A stretch of 64,000 bases of DNA from a virus. Location of the stretch: positions 23,160 to 87,159 of IMG/VR virus record IMGVR_UViG_3300013000_000010; one strand, written 5' to 3'. A program made the translations under genes and the position numbers. Of this stretch, positions 10,696 to 51,099 are shown in pieces. Within the stretch, counting starts at the first letter, position 1, and each line of letters starts with the position of its first letter. The notes under the pieces are model-generated. The model was not told the DNA's origin, searched no databases, and saw nothing but the letters and a program-made list of their open reading frames with translations.

Positions 10696-10759
10696 TGGTG
10701 CAGGTTGACGGAATTGAACCGCCGACAATGGAACACTCTACCGACTGAGCTAAACCTGC
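10696..10759 (-). ncRNA. 64-nt tRNA-derived RNA lacking the anticodon stem-loop (tRNA-Thr-like; pseudogene or mimic)
   Basis: GCAGGTT-TA-GCTC-AGTCGGTA-GAGT-GTTCCATTGTC-GGCGG-TTCAATT-CCGTC-AACCTGC-A-CCA. Confidence 0.8.
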
Positions 10760-10937
10760 TGAATACTTGCCGGTGCATACCCGGCGCGGACACTTAGGTA
10801 TCTGGTCAACCTGTCCGCTTGCGTCACGTATGAGGTCAGGAAACCTCGCCAGATTTGCAGTGCGTTTGCCTCGCTTGCTAAAGCGTTTTCCCCGTTTCAG
10901 CCGTCAGCACACCCTGATGCACTCACGGCTGAAGCTG

Positions 10938-22178: not shown

Positions 22179-23876
22179 TTGGCTACTAAAAATAAGGCAC
22201 TGTCTGTTTTAAGCGCATTGAGGCAGGCATTCCGGGGCGCGGCAGCAGAAGCACCACAAAGCCTCGCATGGACCAACGGACAGAACGTGGTCGTCTCGCG
22301 CTCCGGGCTGGCGGCAATGGCCTACAAAGAGGGAAATGCGGGGGAAATGACTTCCGCCGGCGACAGTCTTTTCCTGGGCGCGGAGCTGCCGCTGGACAGG
22401 CTGCAGCGCTATGCGATTCTGGAAGAAATGGCGAATAGCCCAACGTGCTCAGCCGCTCTGAATATCCACATTGGCCACGCACTCGCGCCGGACAAAAAAA
22501 CCGGGCTGGCGTTCTCTATTGTGCCGGTTGACCCGTCCGACGCAGAAGGCGCGGCGCGGGCCAAAGAGCTACAGGATGATTTGGGCGCGATGATTAACCG
22601 ACACCTGCCGTCGCTGGCTATGACAATGGCGATTTTCGGCGTGTCCTATGTGCGCCCTTATGCCCGCTCAGGGAAAGGGATCACCAGCCTGGAAAATAGC
22701 TATTACTCGTTGCCCTACTTCATTCAGGAGTTTTACAAAGGCGATCAGCTGGTGGGCTTCGGCGGGGACTATGTGCTTTCGCCAGACACCCATACCCGCA
22801 CACTATCTACGCCGTGGTCTCTGGTCCCGATGAAAAATCCGTACTGGACCCCGACGCGCAACGTTCAGCCCGTGACGTCCGGCAATCGTGGTTACTCTCT
22901 GCTATCAGAGGAAGAGGACAAGGAGGTTGCGGAGACGCAGAATTACGGCACCAGCTTCCTGGCGCATGCCTATGAGCCTTTCCTGAATCTGGTCGGCGCG
23001 CTGAATGCGCTGAAGGCAACGCGCTACAACGCCGCCAAAATTGACCGCCTGATTGCCCTGACAACCAACTCACTCGATCCGGTTGTCGGTGCGAACTACA
23101 CCCGCACTGTGTCGCAGACGCTCAAGCGCCACGGCGAAGCACTCCAGAAAAAAGCGGTTAACGGCAACACTATGCCAACCGTGATGAACCATGTGATCCC
23201 GGTGATGGGAGACGGTAAAAACGGCATTACGATCGACACGCAGTCGATACCCGCGGACATTACCGGCATTGAGGACGTGATGTTTCACCTGCGCCAGCTG
23301 TGCGCTGCGCTCGGTATCGACTCGACTATGCTGGGGTGGGCCGATCAGATGGCGGGCGGGCTGGGTGAAGGCGGCTGGATTCAGACGGCTATACAGGCGG
23401 CACTCCGGGCGCAGTGGCTGCGACAGGGCGCGCAGGAAATGATTTACCGGCTGATCGATATTCACCTGGCGTTCAAATACGGCAAGGTTTACCCGGTTAA
23501 GGATCGGCCCTATGTAGTTCAGTTCAACTCGATGAACACCGCCATTCAGGAAGAAGAAAGCCGCGAAATGGACGCCCGCGCCAACTTCATTACCCTGATG
23601 GTGCAGGTCATGGATGCGCTGCAGGCCAACAACAAGCTGGCGGAGAACGACACATTCATGCGCTACCTGTTCAGTGATCAGCTGAAGATGGACGGCGACA
23701 CGCTCGACAAAATGCTGGCGGAGTTTGAGAAGAGCAGGAAGAAAGCGGACGCTCAGGAGGATGAGGGCGGCGGCAGCATGATGAATGAATCTGCTCCTGA
23801 CGGCAGTGATCCGGCCAGCTGGTCCCGTGAAGAACTCATAGCCTTTGCTCGTTTTGTAACCTCACCAGACAAATAA
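22179..23876 (+). CDS. prt: Portal protein
   Basis: 565 aa; divergent from darB and upstream of the protease as in P1. Confidence 0.85.
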   Translation: MATKNKALSVLSALRQAFRGAAAEAPQSLAWTNGQNVVVSRSGLAAMAYKEGNAGEMTSAGDSLFLGAELPLDRLQRYAILEEMANSPTCSAALNIHIGHALAPDKKTGLAFSIVPVDPSDAEGAARAKELQDDLGAMINRHLPSLAMTMAIFGVSYVRPYARSGKGITSLENSYYSLPYFIQEFYKGDQLVGFGGDYVLSPDTHTRTLSTPWSLVPMKNPYWTPTRNVQPVTSGNRGYSLLSEEEDKEVAETQNYGTSFLAHAYEPFLNLVGALNALKATRYNAAKIDRLIALTTNSLDPVVGANYTRTVSQTLKRHGEALQKKAVNGNTMPTVMNHVIPVMGDGKNGITIDTQSIPADITGIEDVMFHLRQLCAALGIDSTMLGWADQMAGGLGEGGWIQTAIQAALRAQWLRQGAQEMIYRLIDIHLAFKYGKVYPVKDRPYVVQFNSMNTAIQEEESREMDARANFITLMVQVMDALQANNKLAENDTFMRYLFSDQLKMDGDTLDKMLAEFEKSRKKADAQEDEGGGSMMNESAPDGSDPASWSREELIAFARFVTSPDK

Positions 23877-24197: not shown

Positions 24198-24330
24198 GGA
24201 GTGCTCCTCGTACAAAAGGAAGCGTCACTACGGGAGGTTCCAATCTCCGGGTGGTGACGTTGACAGGGTTGGAACTACCGGCGTACGAGGAGACCGGCCT
24301 ACCCGAAGGTAGCCCCGCCAACGCCACCAT
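24190..24330 (-). CDS. Ash/Icd-family leader peptide (46 aa)
   Basis: MVALAGLPSGRPVSSYAGSSNPVNVTTRRLEPPVVTLPFVRGALHA; stop overlaps the next start (ATGCCTGA). Confidence 0.7.
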   Translation of the reverse strand: MVALAGLPSGRPVSSYAGSSNPVNVTTRRLEPPVVTLPFVRGALHA

Positions 24331-24434
24331 TGAAACATCTGGCAAACTCCAGACGTGGTAGCGCCGGAGGCACTAAGTGCCTCCTCGTACATTCGTTCGG
24401 GGTTCCAATCCCGACCACTGTTTTACAGTGGCGC
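24320..24434 (-). ncRNA. C4/CI-type antisense RNA
   Basis: Multi-branch fold with CGGG-ATTGGAAC-CCCG loop and GTACGAGGAG, complementary to downstream CTCCTCGTAC (24283-24292) and GTTCCAACCC (24266-24275). Confidence 0.75.
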
Positions 24435-24624: not shown

Positions 24625-25626
24625 ATGGAAGCACTCCGTACGGTGACGGATCGTTTTTCATTGATTGATAAAATTCGTCGATTTACTCCACAGAATGATC
24701 GCAACTACCTGCTGCGCTCTGTCCGCGAGACGTTCGCCAGCCTCGAAACTCTGGAGAGAATCCAGCTGGGGGAAATGTTCGGATATTACGGCCACGGACG
24801 TCGCGCCGCCTATTACGCTAAGACCGGGCGGCTCAATCTGCCGGAATTTGCGGTTGTCATGGTTGATGGGAAACCGGTGACGCTGGAAAACGTACCGTCT
24901 AACCGTACGCTGGATGTCAGCGTGGACGATAACGGCATTGTGACTCACGTTCAGGAGATTCTGGACACTGAACCTGGCAACATCGTTGACGGCATGAACC
25001 GTTCCCGCGCTGGTGGCTGGTCGTGGGCGACAGGTGGTGATGATAACGCCATTTCCAAAGTGACCAGTTTCCACGGCTTCGATTATGTGACCAATCCGAA
25101 CTACATCAGTCAGGATCACCCTGCTCTGCTGCTGGAGTCGGCCAGCGAACGCGCTGACGCTATGCACGCGGGCCTTATTGAAAAGGGGTATTCGGAGAAC
25201 CAGACGGCCGACATTATCCAGCATTTTGAAACCCTGCGCGGCCAGGCGGCAATGCTGGAGTCTGCGGATTCTTCGCTGATGGAATCTGCGCTTCACATCG
25301 AGCATGGAAAGCGTTTGGAGCTGGAGGAACGTCTGCGCAACGCGCAGCTGATGATCGAGAGTGCAGGTACTGTTGCAAAGGCGCGCCGCCGGATTATGAA
25401 GGATGCGCTGGCTAACATGCCGCTGTTTTTAAGTAAAGCCCAGCAGGCGGCACTATGCCGGATGGACACGCCGGAAGATGCGCAGATCGTCGCGGCAATG
25501 CTGGAATCAATCGGTACAAATGCGACGGCCACGCTGCCGATCGGAACCGCCCACCAGCACGCATTACCAGAGACGCGCCCGCCAGCCGTAGACTCAGCAC
25601 CGCTGCTGTGGATTAACACACGATAA
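24625..25626 (+). CDS. pro: Prohead protease
   Basis: 333 aa; YYGHG and GGWSWA catalytic-like motifs; repeated MLES processing motifs. Confidence 0.85.
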   Translation: MEALRTVTDRFSLIDKIRRFTPQNDRNYLLRSVRETFASLETLERIQLGEMFGYYGHGRRAAYYAKTGRLNLPEFAVVMVDGKPVTLENVPSNRTLDVSVDDNGIVTHVQEILDTEPGNIVDGMNRSRAGGWSWATGGDDNAISKVTSFHGFDYVTNPNYISQDHPALLLESASERADAMHAGLIEKGYSENQTADIIQHFETLRGQAAMLESADSSLMESALHIEHGKRLELEERLRNAQLMIESAGTVAKARRRIMKDALANMPLFLSKAQQAALCRMDTPEDAQIVAAMLESIGTNATATLPIGTAHQHALPETRPPAVDSAPLLWINTR

Positions 25627-25639
25627 GAAGGGAAAAAGA

Positions 25640-25669
25640 AATCGTGCCCTGAAACTGGGGGCACGTTTT
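25640..25669 (+). terminator. Terminator after pro
   Basis: CGTGCCC...GGGCACG-TTTT. Confidence 0.6.
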
Positions 25670-25702: not shown

Positions 25703-25731
25703 TTGATCCTTTGTCGGATCGCGTTTATCAT
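25703..25731 (+). promoter_or_regulatory. repL promoter containing two GATC sites
   Basis: TTGATC-17 bp-TATCAT; GATC in the -35 and in the spacer. Confidence 0.55.
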
Positions 25732-25742
25732 CCGGCCTCAAA

Positions 25743-25953
25743 TTCAGTTTAGCGGCTGAATGTGAAGACGAAAAAAAATCGCCTGTTAGCGCAGACGATT
25801 TTCAAACAACATTGTGTGGTTTTGCGGACCACACCGGCGTTGTGCCGTACAGCTTCTGTAGCAGGAAGTTGCTTTTAAACCACTGACACAGGCATTGCAC
25901 CTGCTGTCTCGTGGAGGACATCATCTCTTAATTCCCAGTAGCAAGGAATTAAG
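25743..25953 (+). repeat. Six tandem hairpins with a shared loop motif
   Basis: Loops TTAGCG, TTAGCG, TTTGCG, GTAGCA, CATTGCA, CAGTAGCAA on unrelated stems. Confidence 0.7.
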
Positions 25954-25989
25954 GCATGCCCATGTCCCAAATATCAAGGACTCAAAAGC

Positions 25990-26880
25990 GTGTCTATAGT
26001 AGCTAAAAGCGCCGATCCCGGCAACACTTTTCCCGCATTTCGCTCAAATAACGAGCACAGTTCTGTCCGAATTACAGGCTTTGATCTCACCCATATTATC
26101 GAACTTTCCCCCCTCCCGAAGTCAGTTACCCGTGTCTTAAAATTCGCCTGCAATCTGGCCGGTTCCACGTCCGATTTCATTATCATCAAATCGCTCAGGA
26201 ATCTGGCCGAAGAAGCCGGTTGCAGTATCTCTACAGTTCAGCGTGCTTATCGTGCTGCAGTCAAGCTGGGGATCCTCAACTATGAAGAGCAGCGTGACGA
26301 GAAAAATCACAGCGTCAGCAAGCCCAGTAAATACACGTTTACCAATAAAGCGCTGTCCTTTGTCCGGGCCAGCCTGGAAGCCCTGAAAGAGGCAAATCTG
26401 AAGCCGTCAGGACGCCAGACCATAGTCCGGAGAGTTATCGCTAAGGCATTCTTTAAAAACGATTTTATCCACAGCACCCCTAGTCAGAATGAACAGGCTC
26501 CCCCTGGTCAATCTGACCAACAAGAATTAAGAGATCCCTCCAGTAAAAGAGAAATACAAAATGGGAAGCCATTAAATTCTGTGGTTGAAAAATCGTCAGA
26601 TCCTCAACCGGCCGCGGTGAAAAAATTCGGGCTCTACCAGAACACGCAAAAGCAGCTGGCGGCTGCATCGTCAGCAGCGCAGAACGAACGTAGCGCTGAA
26701 GAGTTTCAGCGAAAAGGCGGTGTACTGCATGAAGCCTATCAGGCGCTGAAGTCTACCTTCAGGGCAAAGCCTGCTGGTGGCATTAAGCCGAAAGGCCGCC
26801 GCTACTCTGACCCATTGAGCGGCAGCTTTTCGGCGGGTGTGGATTACTCTGTCATACCTGAAGGCTTTCGAGGCTGTTAA
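25990..26880 (+). CDS. repL: Lytic replication initiator RepL
   Basis: HTH LAEEAGCSISTVQRAYRAAVKLGIL; TPSQNEQAPPGQ; C-terminal IPEGFRG as in P1 RepL (IPAGFRG). Confidence 0.85.
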   Translation: MSIVAKSADPGNTFPAFRSNNEHSSVRITGFDLTHIIELSPLPKSVTRVLKFACNLAGSTSDFIIIKSLRNLAEEAGCSISTVQRAYRAAVKLGILNYEEQRDEKNHSVSKPSKYTFTNKALSFVRASLEALKEANLKPSGRQTIVRRVIAKAFFKNDFIHSTPSQNEQAPPGQSDQQELRDPSSKREIQNGKPLNSVVEKSSDPQPAAVKKFGLYQNTQKQLAAASSAAQNERSAEEFQRKGGVLHEAYQALKSTFRAKPAGGIKPKGRRYSDPLSGSFSAGVDYSVIPEGFRGC

Positions 26881-27374
26881 TCGGTAACAGTGCCACCAGC
26901 GTTCACATAGGCCGTCAGCAGCGCTTCAATCTTGTGCGTTTTCTGACCATAAGGTGAGCCAGTAAGCGAGGCCCAGATATCATTGGTTTTACTGATCGCC
27001 GTGCGGATCCGCCCTGCCAGCACGTCGGCATAAGCACCCTGCTCTTTCAGCAGCTGATCGAGTAACCGCTCCTGTGAGGCAGGACTAAAATCAGGCAGGC
27101 CCAACTGCTTTTTATAGGCAGGCCAGTAGCGATAAAGCTGCTGATAGCGGCCCGCAGCGGTTGATGCCAGGCCATTGTGATTAATCTGTTTCGCATTGCG
27201 ATGTGCAAACGGGTGATCACCGAAGTCGGTGAAGATCTCGCCCTGCATTTCGCCCAGCCCGGTCACGATGACGTCGTAGCCACGCATACGGGTTAACGGG
27301 TGAGTACTGGTTCCTTCAGAAAAGGCCAGCATGTCGCCAAAGGCTTTACGGTTGCTTGTAAATTGAATTTCCAT
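26877..27374 (-). CDS. Endolysin, lambda R-type lytic transglycosylase
   Basis: AFSEGT, YDVIV, STAAGRYQ, LPDFSPASQ motifs; no N-terminal SAR helix. Confidence 0.9.
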   Translation of the reverse strand: MEIQFTSNRKAFGDMLAFSEGTSTHPLTRMRGYDVIVTGLGEMQGEIFTDFGDHPFAHRNAKQINHNGLASTAAGRYQQLYRYWPAYKKQLGLPDFSPASQERLLDQLLKEQGAYADVLAGRIRTAISKTNDIWASLTGSPYGQKTHKIEALLTAYVNAGGTVTD

Positions 27375-27409: not shown

Positions 27410-27428
27410 TGTATGGAGTTTGTGATTT
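27410..27428 (-). promoter_or_regulatory. Late-promoter motif upstream of the endolysin
   Basis: AAATCACAAACTCCATACA. Confidence 0.65.
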
Positions 27429-27486
27429 AATCAGTGATCATTTTTTTAATCTTACTTTTCCTGCTAATTTGATTTAAGGATGACTA

Positions 27487-49521: not shown

Positions 49522-51099
49522 TTAACGGAACAGCGTTGGCTTGCCGACGATGCGGCGTGAAGATCCGGTAGGGCAGACAGACCAGGAGGCTTCCCACAGG
49601 TCGATATCTTTTTGCACCACGGAGACAACAAACGGCTCAGTGCCTTGCGTGACGTCACGCGGTTTAACCAGTGCCTCAGCGGCTACGAAGCGCTCCAGCA
49701 GATCGGTTAAGCCATCAGTCAGGCCTTTGAAGGTGATACCGTCCGGCTCATGCTTCAGCGCTTCTGCCACGTCATAAAAACCGCGTGCGATCGCGTTCAT
49801 CAGCGAACTGATGTGCTGCAGGCGCAGGTAGTTGTTTTTGGCGAACGTAGTCAGGGAGTCGTCGATATACATGTTCCCGGCTTTATCGAGGCTTACCGGA
49901 TTGATGCGCGCAGTCACAAAGGCCTCGCGGTCGATCTCGTCCAGATTCGGGATAGGCTTGATGTTCTGACGGTTGATGATTGCGCGCGACACGCCAGCAG
50001 GTGAGTAATGCCAGCCACCGACGTCGGAGACCAGCGCCACGCCTTTGGCTTTCGCCACAAACGCATCACAGGAGATCCCCCAGTTAACGTTGGTGCCGGT
50101 GAATGCGTCGCGTGCGGTGTACGGCCAGTAGTAACGTGCTGGCTGATGTGAACCGCCGAGCCCGTGGCCCTGCGCCTCCGCCATCGCCGCTGCAGACAGC
50201 TGCGCACCATGCACGTCGTAGAACATGTCGGTACGGGTGTCTTCCGCCAGCTTGACCAGCGCCGCGATCACGGTCGGGTCATAGCAGCCCAGCGACAGTA
50301 CAGCCGTCCAGGAGAACATGGATTTACGCAGAACCGTCAGGGCTTTGGTGTAGTCAGCCGTGGCAATAGCAGACAGATCGCCATCAATGCCGCCGCTAAA
50401 CTGCATATCGTCGAAGCCTTCAGTGATAGGCTGCATCAGCGTTTCAACGTCGTCCGATACGATAGCGCGAAGGCGGGTAGAGCCATTTTCCAGCGCGGTC
50501 GGCAGGAAGGCAGGCGAACCCATGTCGCTGGTGGCATTGGTGTTGAAAGAAATCTGATGGGATTCCAGCACTGACTCAACGCCAGCCGCGTCAACTTCCT
50601 TCAGCGTCAGGATGTAGAAGCCCGGTGCCGTTTTGTCAGCTTCCATGCTCAGAGTGCGATTTGCTGAGGCGTCGCCATCTTCGATGTAGATCATCGCTGC
50701 AGCGCCAGCCGCCAGAACCGGATCGGAAGACGGCGCAAAGTTGCTGGCCACCACGCTCAGCTCCTGCATGGTGGTATCAGCCATCAGGGACAGGGCAGGG
50801 ATCTTCATACCCGGCGCCGCCACACGGACCACATAACCATCACCGCCGTTAACGGCAGTCGCTACGTGGCGCAGCGGCTCAAATGCCGCACCGCTGCGCG
50901 GGTGAATGGCTTCGCCCAGCACCGCTTGATAGTTATCAGCCGTGACGCGCAGAACAGCGCCGATTTTGCCGCGGCGGGCAATAACCAGACCGGCAAAGAC
51001 GGACGCGCCGCCAGATGCAACGGAAGTCGTCGCATCAGCGTTGACTTCCTGCACCGCAATGCCGGACGCCTGGCCCACAGAAAAACGAATCTTATTCAT
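49522..51099 (-). CDS. Tail sheath protein gp22
   Basis: 525 aa; GWHYSPAGVSR and YIDDSLT sheath motifs. Confidence 0.9.
   Translation of the reverse strand: MNKIRFSVGQASGIAVQEVNADATTSVASGGASVFAGLVIARRGKIGAVLRVTADNYQAVLGEAIHPRSGAAFEPLRHVATAVNGGDGYVVRVAAPGMKIPALSLMADTTMQELSVVASNFAPSSDPVLAAGAAAMIYIEDGDASANRTLSMEADKTAPGFYILTLKEVDAAGVESVLESHQISFNTNATSDMGSPAFLPTALENGSTRLRAIVSDDVETLMQPITEGFDDMQFSGGIDGDLSAIATADYTKALTVLRKSMFSWTAVLSLGCYDPTVIAALVKLAEDTRTDMFYDVHGAQLSAAAMAEAQGHGLGGSHQPARYYWPYTARDAFTGTNVNWGISCDAFVAKAKGVALVSDVGGWHYSPAGVSRAIINRQNIKPIPNLDEIDREAFVTARINPVSLDKAGNMYIDDSLTTFAKNNYLRLQHISSLMNAIARGFYDVAEALKHEPDGITFKGLTDGLTDLLERFVAAEALVKPRDVTQGTEPFVVSVVQKDIDLWEASWSVCPTGSSRRIVGKPTLFR

Follow-up and report, generated by a model that had tools for sequence, protein, structure and literature searches.

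The leader of the lytic replication gene repL in the window, by which we mean the whole stretch of 64,000 nucleotides analysed here, is a row of seven hairpins whose stems are kept among relatives while their loops vary. Our preferred reading, to which we give a probability of about one half, is that this leader is the region where a sense and an antisense RNA overlap in a countertranscript control of repL, and that it is the counterpart, in D6 and the Pantoea elements, of the P53/P53as pair of phage P1. The hairpins and the pattern of their conservation, a terminator, promoter-like sites and the parallels with D6 and P1 could be observed, and from these we infer the antisense RNA, its ends and its mode of action.

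The source virus record has 90,665 bp with terminal repeats present, and the window is a part of it. Among public sequences it is closest to Pantoea plasmids (87-95 kb, non-mobilizable), which have P1/D6-like phage genes aboard. Judged by its translation, the open reading frame at 25990-26880 is a true RepL homologue. The match with P1 RepL in tblastn had approx. 30% identity over 94% of the length (E = 1e-15), and the protein has an HTH_36 domain and is a member of phrog_2418. The gene is flanked by pro (head-processing, 24625-25626) upstream and by the endolysin gene lyz (26877-27374, minus strand) downstream. This pro-repL-lyz position matches that in phage D6, while the repL of P1 follows ant and kilA instead; kilA was indeed found between the P1 promoter and repL, as the first reading of the leader, made from the letters of the window, had stated. 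The terminator behind pro could also act on the minus strand, given its A-rich 5' flank, and a terminator at the end of ant represents the same plan in P1. The features of the region are the following, in window coordinates and with the strand where one was assigned.

25643-25665, plus strand: pro terminator, found in the terminator scan; A-rich 5' flank
25703-25731, plus strand: repL promoter, TTGATC-17-TATCAT, 9/12 in the promoter scan; predicted start near 25738
25738-25765 (core 25742-25761), plus strand: hairpin 1, from the fold; 5'-terminal stem-loop of the mRNA
25771-25803, both strands: hairpin 2, two-way intrinsic terminator by prediction, with an A8 tract on the 5' side and a T4-6 tract on the 3' side
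25814-25834: hairpin 3, GTGTGGT-loop-ACCACAC
25836-25848: seventh hairpin, CGGC-gttgt-GCCG, which folds and was missing from the first list of hairpins
25850-25871: hairpin 4, from the fold; conserved CTTC/GGAAG core and hypervariable loop
25885-25908: hairpin 5, from the fold and the alignment; loop (C/U)(A/G)UUGCA, with GGAG next to it
25927-25953: hairpin 6, from alignments; inside an insertion of about 68 nt unique to window-type leaders
25956-26006, plus strand: mini-ORF of 16 codons, found by script; its stop lies 17 nt past the repL GTG start
25990-26880, plus strand: repL, 296 aa, GTG start; homologue of the lytic replication initiator, by tblastn to P1, P7 and D6 RepL
25996-26024, minus strand: predicted antisense promoter, -35 TTGCCG (26024 to 26019), 17-nt spacer, -10 TACTAT (26001 to 25996); predicted start at about 25989
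25767-25989, minus strand: predicted antisense RNA, length about 220 nt; it would pair with the repL start codon, the ribosome-binding site and hairpins 6 to 2

The leader at 25738-25953 contains the six hairpins that had been reported and, in addition, the seventh one. When the plus strand of 25738-25995 (258 nt) was folded, a free energy of -83.3 kcal/mol was obtained (z -3.65), and all six stem-loops were recovered in the minimum-free-energy fold at the positions reported for them; the fold of the minus strand of the leader was stronger (z -5.34). The loops of hairpins 1-6 are UUUAGCGG, UUAGCG, UUUGCGG, UGUAGCA, CAUUGCA and CAGUAGCAA, respectively, and T(A/T)GC(G/A) is present in every one of them; the convergence of the loops on a shared motif is real in this genome. 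In the genome-wide list of perfect hairpins (stem at least 5, loop 4-10; 867 entries per strand) the motif was found in only about five plus-strand hairpins outside the leader, and six motif loops within 210 nt are far beyond chance, even with the motif chosen after the fact. The TTAGCA hairpin near 10885, which had been brought forward as a similar case, does exist, but its stem has only 4 bp and it belongs to an unrelated non-coding RNA island. The same island contains a stretch (10699-10759, minus strand) which is a tRNA by Rfam (47 bits) and none by ARAGORN. The Rfam search of the leader gave no match at E values up to 10, and that of the whole window yielded just two matches, a C4 RNA and the tRNA-like one.

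The comparison with relatives was based on 38 distinct leaders, taken from plasmids and viral contigs as well as from one genome and one metagenome scan. In the 21 closer ones the share of variable columns was 65% for loops, 40% for linkers and 16% for stems (loop versus stem, Fisher p = 4e-6), which is the reverse of the conserved loops on divergent stems that had been described from the single genome. Hairpin 3 has 13 and hairpin 4 has 9 distinct loop forms among the relatives, and the indel of about 68 nt that carries hairpin 6 was filled in 8 of the first 23 leaders, most relatives being without it; the loops are thus not conserved across relatives. In P. eucalyptii pEuc3 the stem of hairpin 6 is kept by a compensatory change, while the loop is different. 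The stems, on the other hand, were strongly maintained. In an alignment of 33 leaders that covered the promoter through the seventh hairpin, 92% of the cells were paired as compared with 34-46% when the partners were slid, and the value for the seventh hairpin was 97.7%. The covariation analysis of the repL leaders, which had been suggested as a check, revealed ten two-sided pair changes, six of them in hairpin 1 and four in hairpin 3 (the latter in L058/L080 and L048/L050), and the observed values were reached in none of 500 shuffles. The kept stems bear out the earlier view that the repL leader is a conserved regulatory structure. The loop of hairpin 3 (25821-25827) is TGTCGAG in one lineage, approximately the reverse complement of the CTTCGACA or CTCTGACA found in another, and these loops sit on an unchanged stem (L009:1269-1425 as compared with L014:2201-2356). 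This looks like a flip by recombination between the hairpin arms.

The sequence-only reading had taken the array for a multivalent set of binding sites for one RNA- or ssDNA-binding protein, which would be an antiterminator, a sponge or a translational regulator. This proposal draws on the T(A/T)GC(G/A) motif in all six loops, far above background, on the loops of hairpins 1 and 2, which remain alike in most lineages, and on the invariant stem sequence of hairpin 2. It is opposed by the fact that the loops proved to be the least conserved class, with the 13 and 9 forms in hairpins 3 and 4, one lineage's hairpin 3 loop being close to the reverse complement of another's, and hairpin 6 absent from most relatives; moreover, D6 has the same plan with unrelated loops. 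The more specific idea of boxB/nut antitermination fails as well, since no meaningful boxA was found within 2 mismatches and the loops are of 4-9 nt, variable and not GNRA-like. We regard a protein-binding array as very improbable, the evidence favouring RNA-RNA (antisense) control. The likeness of loops within one genome can mislead when relatives are not compared.

The TAGCG of the loops, which we take to resemble the CS-6 element of ssoA (presumably with the consensus TAGCG(T/A)), had also brought up the possibility of ssDNA signals, such as sites for priming or for the assembly of a primosome, or an origin like ssoA, which would become accessible once lytic replication or transcription has opened the DNA here. 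The hairpins do fold on either strand. In other lineages, however, TAGCG is replaced by TGACG, TGGCG or GGTAA and so is not conserved, and P1 RepL is an HTH initiator of theta-type replication, not a rolling-circle Rep; with an HTH RepL as the initiator here too, the CS-6 assignment is not supported. The layout of the promoter and terminator signals is one that suits transcripts. The oriL of P1 is located within repL, close by, but the RepL-driven replication of P1 needs a region in the second half of that gene (PMC9948254). Altogether, the chance that the hairpins serve as ssDNA signals seems to be very slight.

The most constant element of the leader is hairpin 2, the stem of which was identical in 33 of the 33 leaders, even in relatives whose RepL has no more than about 60% identity. 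In all of these leaders one position inside the stem is unpaired or pairs weakly. On the minus strand the hairpin has 12 pairs, a CGCUAA loop and then U8, and it is on this strand only that the scan calls a terminator; the 12 pairs are uninterrupted because the internal C-A mismatch becomes U-G there. On the plus strand the stem is interrupted, the loop is UUAGCG and U4-6 follows. The A-run on the 5' side consists of at least eight A's in the relatives, and of seven in one. Hairpin 2 is thus predicted to be a strong terminator of the minus strand and a weaker attenuator of the plus strand. The full invariance of its stem exceeds the needs of a terminator, and an additional sequence-specific partner may be involved.

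The core of the repL promoter is invariant among the relatives, and hairpin 1, which has a UAGC tetraloop with U-G closing pairs (loop motif UUAGCG), begins a few bases from the predicted plus-strand transcription start. Two Dam sites (GATC) are situated in this promoter, one in the -35 hexamer (25705-25708) and the other in the spacer (25717-25720), and the spacer of the predicted minus promoter also holds one (26014-26017). As in the Pantoea elements, the PkilA/P53 promoter of P1 and the repL promoter of D6 have GATC inside the -35 hexamer and more GATC nearby, three Dam sites being annotated at P1 PkilA and three being present at the D6 promoter. The Dam methylation state may couple the plus and the minus promoters to replication. 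A P1-type C1 operator (up to 4 mismatches) was not found near the repL promoter, and the genome-wide search gave one poor match elsewhere. Neither the sequence of the promoter region nor hairpin 2 has a second copy in the window that would suggest a repeated operator. As a candidate for a repeated box, ACTAAAAATTAGG upstream of the promoter was rejected, since similar copies occur at 22185 and 27389 but their count was not above that in shuffles; it bears no resemblance to the -22 box of the P1 late promoters either. The pattern ACTAAAAAT(T/A)(A/G)G is seen at 22185, 25677 and 27389 on the plus strand, ahead of three transcription units, in a number that is within the shuffled expectation. Upstream of the endolysin gene (27421-27440, minus strand) there is an imperfect palindrome, TCACTGATTAAATCACA, similar to the -22 box of P1 LPlyz (AAGTGATTT); this site in the window is probably the Lpa-dependent late promoter.

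Just inside repL, TTGCCG-17-TACTAT on the minus strand occupies +6 to +11 of the gene with its -10 and +29 to +34 with its -35, and it is the sole minus-strand promoter-like site common to all 23 leaders scanned. Other minus-strand promoters in the leader were discarded, as none of them was common to all; CATAAT near hairpin 5 was present only in the short-leader relatives. Divergent leaders, read by eye, have TTGCCG with TACCAT or TAACAT at the same spacing, despite an altered start codon and altered N-terminal residues. The Pantoea site agrees with the consensus at 8 of 12 positions, which is below the scan threshold. The mean minor-allele frequency at the third codon positions of repL was 0.077 in codons 5-15 versus 0.257 in codons 16-60, and no such drop could be seen over codons 5-15 at the first and second positions; this pattern indicates a constraint at the nucleic-acid level over the stretch. 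The conservation of the minus site could instead reflect the N-terminus of RepL, the translation start region or the stop codons which close the mini-ORFs. The predicted antisense RNA of about 220 nt folds with -83 kcal/mol (z -4.94), and a z of -4.30 was obtained for the predicted antisense RNA of a short-leader relative. In the short-leader relatives the GGAG after hairpin 5 is, according to the alignment, the ribosome-binding site of repL.

The same arrangement is encountered in D6 (MF356679.1). Its gene order is prt-pro-repL, as in the window, and its leader follows the plan of the window too; in D6 this comprises a TTGATC promoter with three GATC, a 5' hairpin and an A7-stem-T5 two-way terminator. 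The sole promoter-like match in the repL start region of D6 is TTGAAA-17-TAAAAT on the minus strand (10/12), at the same +6 to +34 offset, and the sole terminator-like match in the leader is a minus-strand hairpin with a T-run. The antisense RNA predicted from these would be of 95 nt with three stem-loops (z -6.64). The D6 leader differs from that of the window in its length (about 200 nt), its unrelated sequence, the lower number of hairpins and the mutually unrelated loops (UCCG, GAGA). Our literature search found no paper describing a D6 antisense RNA.

The lytic replicon of P1 is described in PMC9948254. PaskilA/P53as, the experimentally defined counterpart, is annotated in the P1 record; its antisense transcript has a mapped start at position +19 within kilA, which opens the operon. 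P1 and the window are alike in having a RepL homologue downstream, and the convergent promoter of P1 has a candidate equivalent in the window, namely the promoter-like site near the start of repL. The P1 sequence also contains an A7-stem-T-run two-way terminator, which has T7 on the minus strand and would limit the antisense RNA to about 180 nt. In P1, however, kilA is inserted between the promoter and repL, the leader of about 70 nt has one small hairpin, and the terminator is upstream of the plus promoter, so the antisense RNA crosses the promoter. In the window the terminator is located about 35 nt past the plus start, the overlap is the seven-hairpin leader and kilA is missing. The C1 operator of P1 overlaps the -10, while the window genome is without a P1-type C1 operator.

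The countertranscript reading would work as follows. The plus promoter (25703-25731) would give rise to an mRNA with its 5' part folded as hairpins 1 to 6, and part of the plus transcription would end early at hairpin 2. The convergent promoter just inside repL (25996-26024, minus strand) would produce the antisense RNA, which would stop at hairpin 2 after about 220 nt. Pairing of the two RNAs would start by loop-loop kissing at the U-turn loops (UUNR, clearest as UURRCG in hairpins 1 and 2), and the spreading duplex would block the translation of repL, probably together with duplex cleavage and promoter interference. Lytic replication would be damped in this way until the plus promoter is strongly induced. 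The loops would be free to drift, because a loop mutation in a cis-antisense pair alters both RNAs together and is neutral, and the stems would stay fixed because a stem mutation damages both folds. Countertranscript control would thus give fixed stems and drifting loops without invoking a protein, and it would also account for the kept A-run, the conserved site inside repL and the stronger fold of the minus strand. Such a control would be a variant of the theme known from P1 P53as and the plasmid countertranscripts.

The mRNA loops of hairpins 1 and 2 have the form UU(A/G)(G/A)CG, i.e. UUAGCG, UUGGCG or UUGACG, and fit the YUNR U-turn rule; UUGGCG was seen as the hairpin 1 loop in L009, L011, L013 and L018. 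Recognition loops of antisense systems generally have YUNR U-turns (PMC4485353), and UUGGCG is the loop motif of the ColIb-P9 Inc RNA according to a title cited in PMC10724649. Among the distinct loops of hairpins 1-4, YUNR was present in 25 of 35 on the plus strand and in 12 of 35 on the minus strand, and 7 of the 9 distinct hairpin 4 loops have it on the plus strand. The TAGC/TTGC motif noticed in the sequence-only reading is thus largely a lineage-specific state of such U-turn-type loops.

For hairpins 1 and 2 the idea that the common loop motif matters was upheld; the two loops co-vary. The hairpin 1/hairpin 2 loop haplotypes are AG/AG, GG/AG, GG/GA and GA/GA, and in each of them the hairpin 1 loop can form an unbroken run of six pairs with the complement of the hairpin 2 loop, the two intermediate haplotypes making use of G-U. 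Among the leaders compared, the combinations AG/GA and GA/AG, which would be mismatched, were not seen. In the divergent PSNIH1-like clade loops 1 and 2 share GGUAA or GCAA in some haplotypes (5-7 pairs), and the match of the hairpin 1 loop to the complement of the hairpin 2 loop is poor (2-4 pairs) in 5 of the 33 sequences, all of them from this clade. Few independent events are behind the pattern, and the co-variation is suggestive. Hairpin 1 would lie beyond the 3' end of the antisense RNA, and because of this its loop would have to co-evolve with that of hairpin 2. It is conceivable, if rather doubtful, that the loop of the antisense 3' terminator (CGCUAA), which complements hairpin 2, also recognises the loop of hairpin 1 outside the overlap. 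If true, a cis-antisense RNA would also act in a trans-like manner on the 5' hairpin of its own target, possibly in order to reach the growing transcript ahead of the synthesis of the attenuator, or for immunity or incompatibility specificity between related phage-plasmids.

When trans targets of the hairpin 1 and 2 loops were searched for in the genome, the sole long match was a 12-mer at window position 50392, which is compatible with chance; it is a same-sense sequence at the start of a minus-strand ORF. The C4 RNA was rejected as a loop partner, its pairing stretches GUUCCAA and CUCCUCGUAC matching sites before its own downstream ORF and not UUAGCG. This C4 antisense RNA (Rfam, 81.8 bits) is encoded at 24247-24334 on the minus strand and is followed by two target boxes and an 85-aa ORF (24197-23940, minus strand), which is annotated in relatives as 'MW1434 family type I TA system toxin'.

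The small ORFs of the leader have a bearing on a reading that confines the control to the sense strand. The block right after the repL start is invariant, and in each of the other two frames it supplies a stop codon, by which mini-ORFs of 9-24 codons are closed. In many relatives the stop of the mini-ORF is located 0-17 nt past the repL start; elsewhere the mini-ORF is absent or lacks a Shine-Dalgarno sequence. In the window the AAGG in the 3' arm of hairpin 6 could be the ribosome-binding site of the mini-ORF. The PSNIH1 clade has a leader ORF of 12-24 codons with a good Shine-Dalgarno sequence and a TGA which overlaps the repL GTG (GTGA). In the PSNIH1-like leader ORF, MEISIHRE...GNNQ, a 12-codon tandem repeat differs among relatives (L004:2754-3049 as compared with L089:1293-1555). 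Translational coupling of some form may share the conserved sequence at the repL start.

Without any antisense RNA, such a leader would combine a 5' stability hairpin, hairpin 2 as a constitutive or factor-modulated attenuator, distal hairpins masking the ribosome-binding site and coupling to the mini-ORF. The invariance of the plus promoter, the U4-6 after hairpin 2 on the plus strand and the mini-ORFs ending at or just past the repL start, with the GTGA overlap of the PSNIH1 clade, are compatible with this, even though the mini-ORF is not conserved across relatives. Certain one-sided stem changes yield G-U only on the plus strand, which would also fit; the G-U versus C-A asymmetry in the stems, as an indication of the strand, was mixed, since other changes give G-U only on the minus strand. 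A control of the sense strand only leaves several observations unexplained, namely the A-run of hairpin 2, invariant with eight A's or more (seven in one relative) and read as a U-run from the minus strand, the promoter-like site that D6 and the Pantoea elements have at the same offset despite the different sequence, the silent-site conservation of codons 5-15 and the co-variation of the loops of hairpins 1 and 2. We consider it unlikely that the sense strand acts alone.

The countertranscript reading places the repL leader beside plasmid systems such as ColIb-P9/IncB Inc RNA (repY-repZ), R1 CopA/CopT-tap-repA and ColE1 RNAI/RNAII. They have in common a structured leader of a replication initiator gene, an antisense RNA of stem-loops (predicted in our case) which ends in its own terminator, U-turn recognition loops, UUGGCG itself occurring in some relatives here, and conserved stems with loops that vary from one related replicon to the next; there are also small ORFs in the leader which adjoin the start of rep. 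The window differs from these systems in having no sequence homology with them, in the greater length of the predicted RNA, which would cover the ribosome-binding site itself, and in that two mRNA hairpins share one loop motif, one of them being outside the overlap. It also differs in that a pseudoknot has no co-variation support and in that it is a phage lytic replicon, not a plasmid maintenance replicon.

The likeness to the plasmids could go further. In a switch of the IncI/IncB type, the UUGGCG-like loop of hairpin 1 or 2 would form an activating pseudoknot with a CGCC past the repL start, and the antisense RNA would compete for the loop. The mRNA loops are UURRCG, leader mini-ORFs are present, and the CGCCGA at +21 to +26 of repL pairs at 6 of 6 positions with UUGGCG and at 5 of 6 with UUAGCG or UUGACG; yet 4-6 complementary bases are weak evidence. 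No co-variation was found, as CGCCGA is fixed while the loops change and the CACCGA and CGCAGA variants do not track the loops, and the clade with the GGUAA loop is without a complementary site near the start. Moreover, the ribosome-binding site would already be covered directly by the predicted antisense RNA. Such a switch is therefore a quite unlikely explanation of the leader.

RepL starts the lytic replication of P1-like phage-plasmids, elements that are widespread in Enterobacterales, and it is used in synthetic biology as a copy-number amplifier. In P1 the expression of repL is gated by the C1 repressor and by an antisense RNA that has been little studied. As a P1-type operator is missing at this place in the D6/Pantoea lineage, the passage from plasmid maintenance to lytic replication may be gated there mainly at the RNA level, i.e. 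by the attenuator and the antisense RNA. The natural series of loop variants on fixed stems is a ready test set for the evolution of kissing-loop specificity, and the leader family is a possible source of orthogonal RNA regulators.
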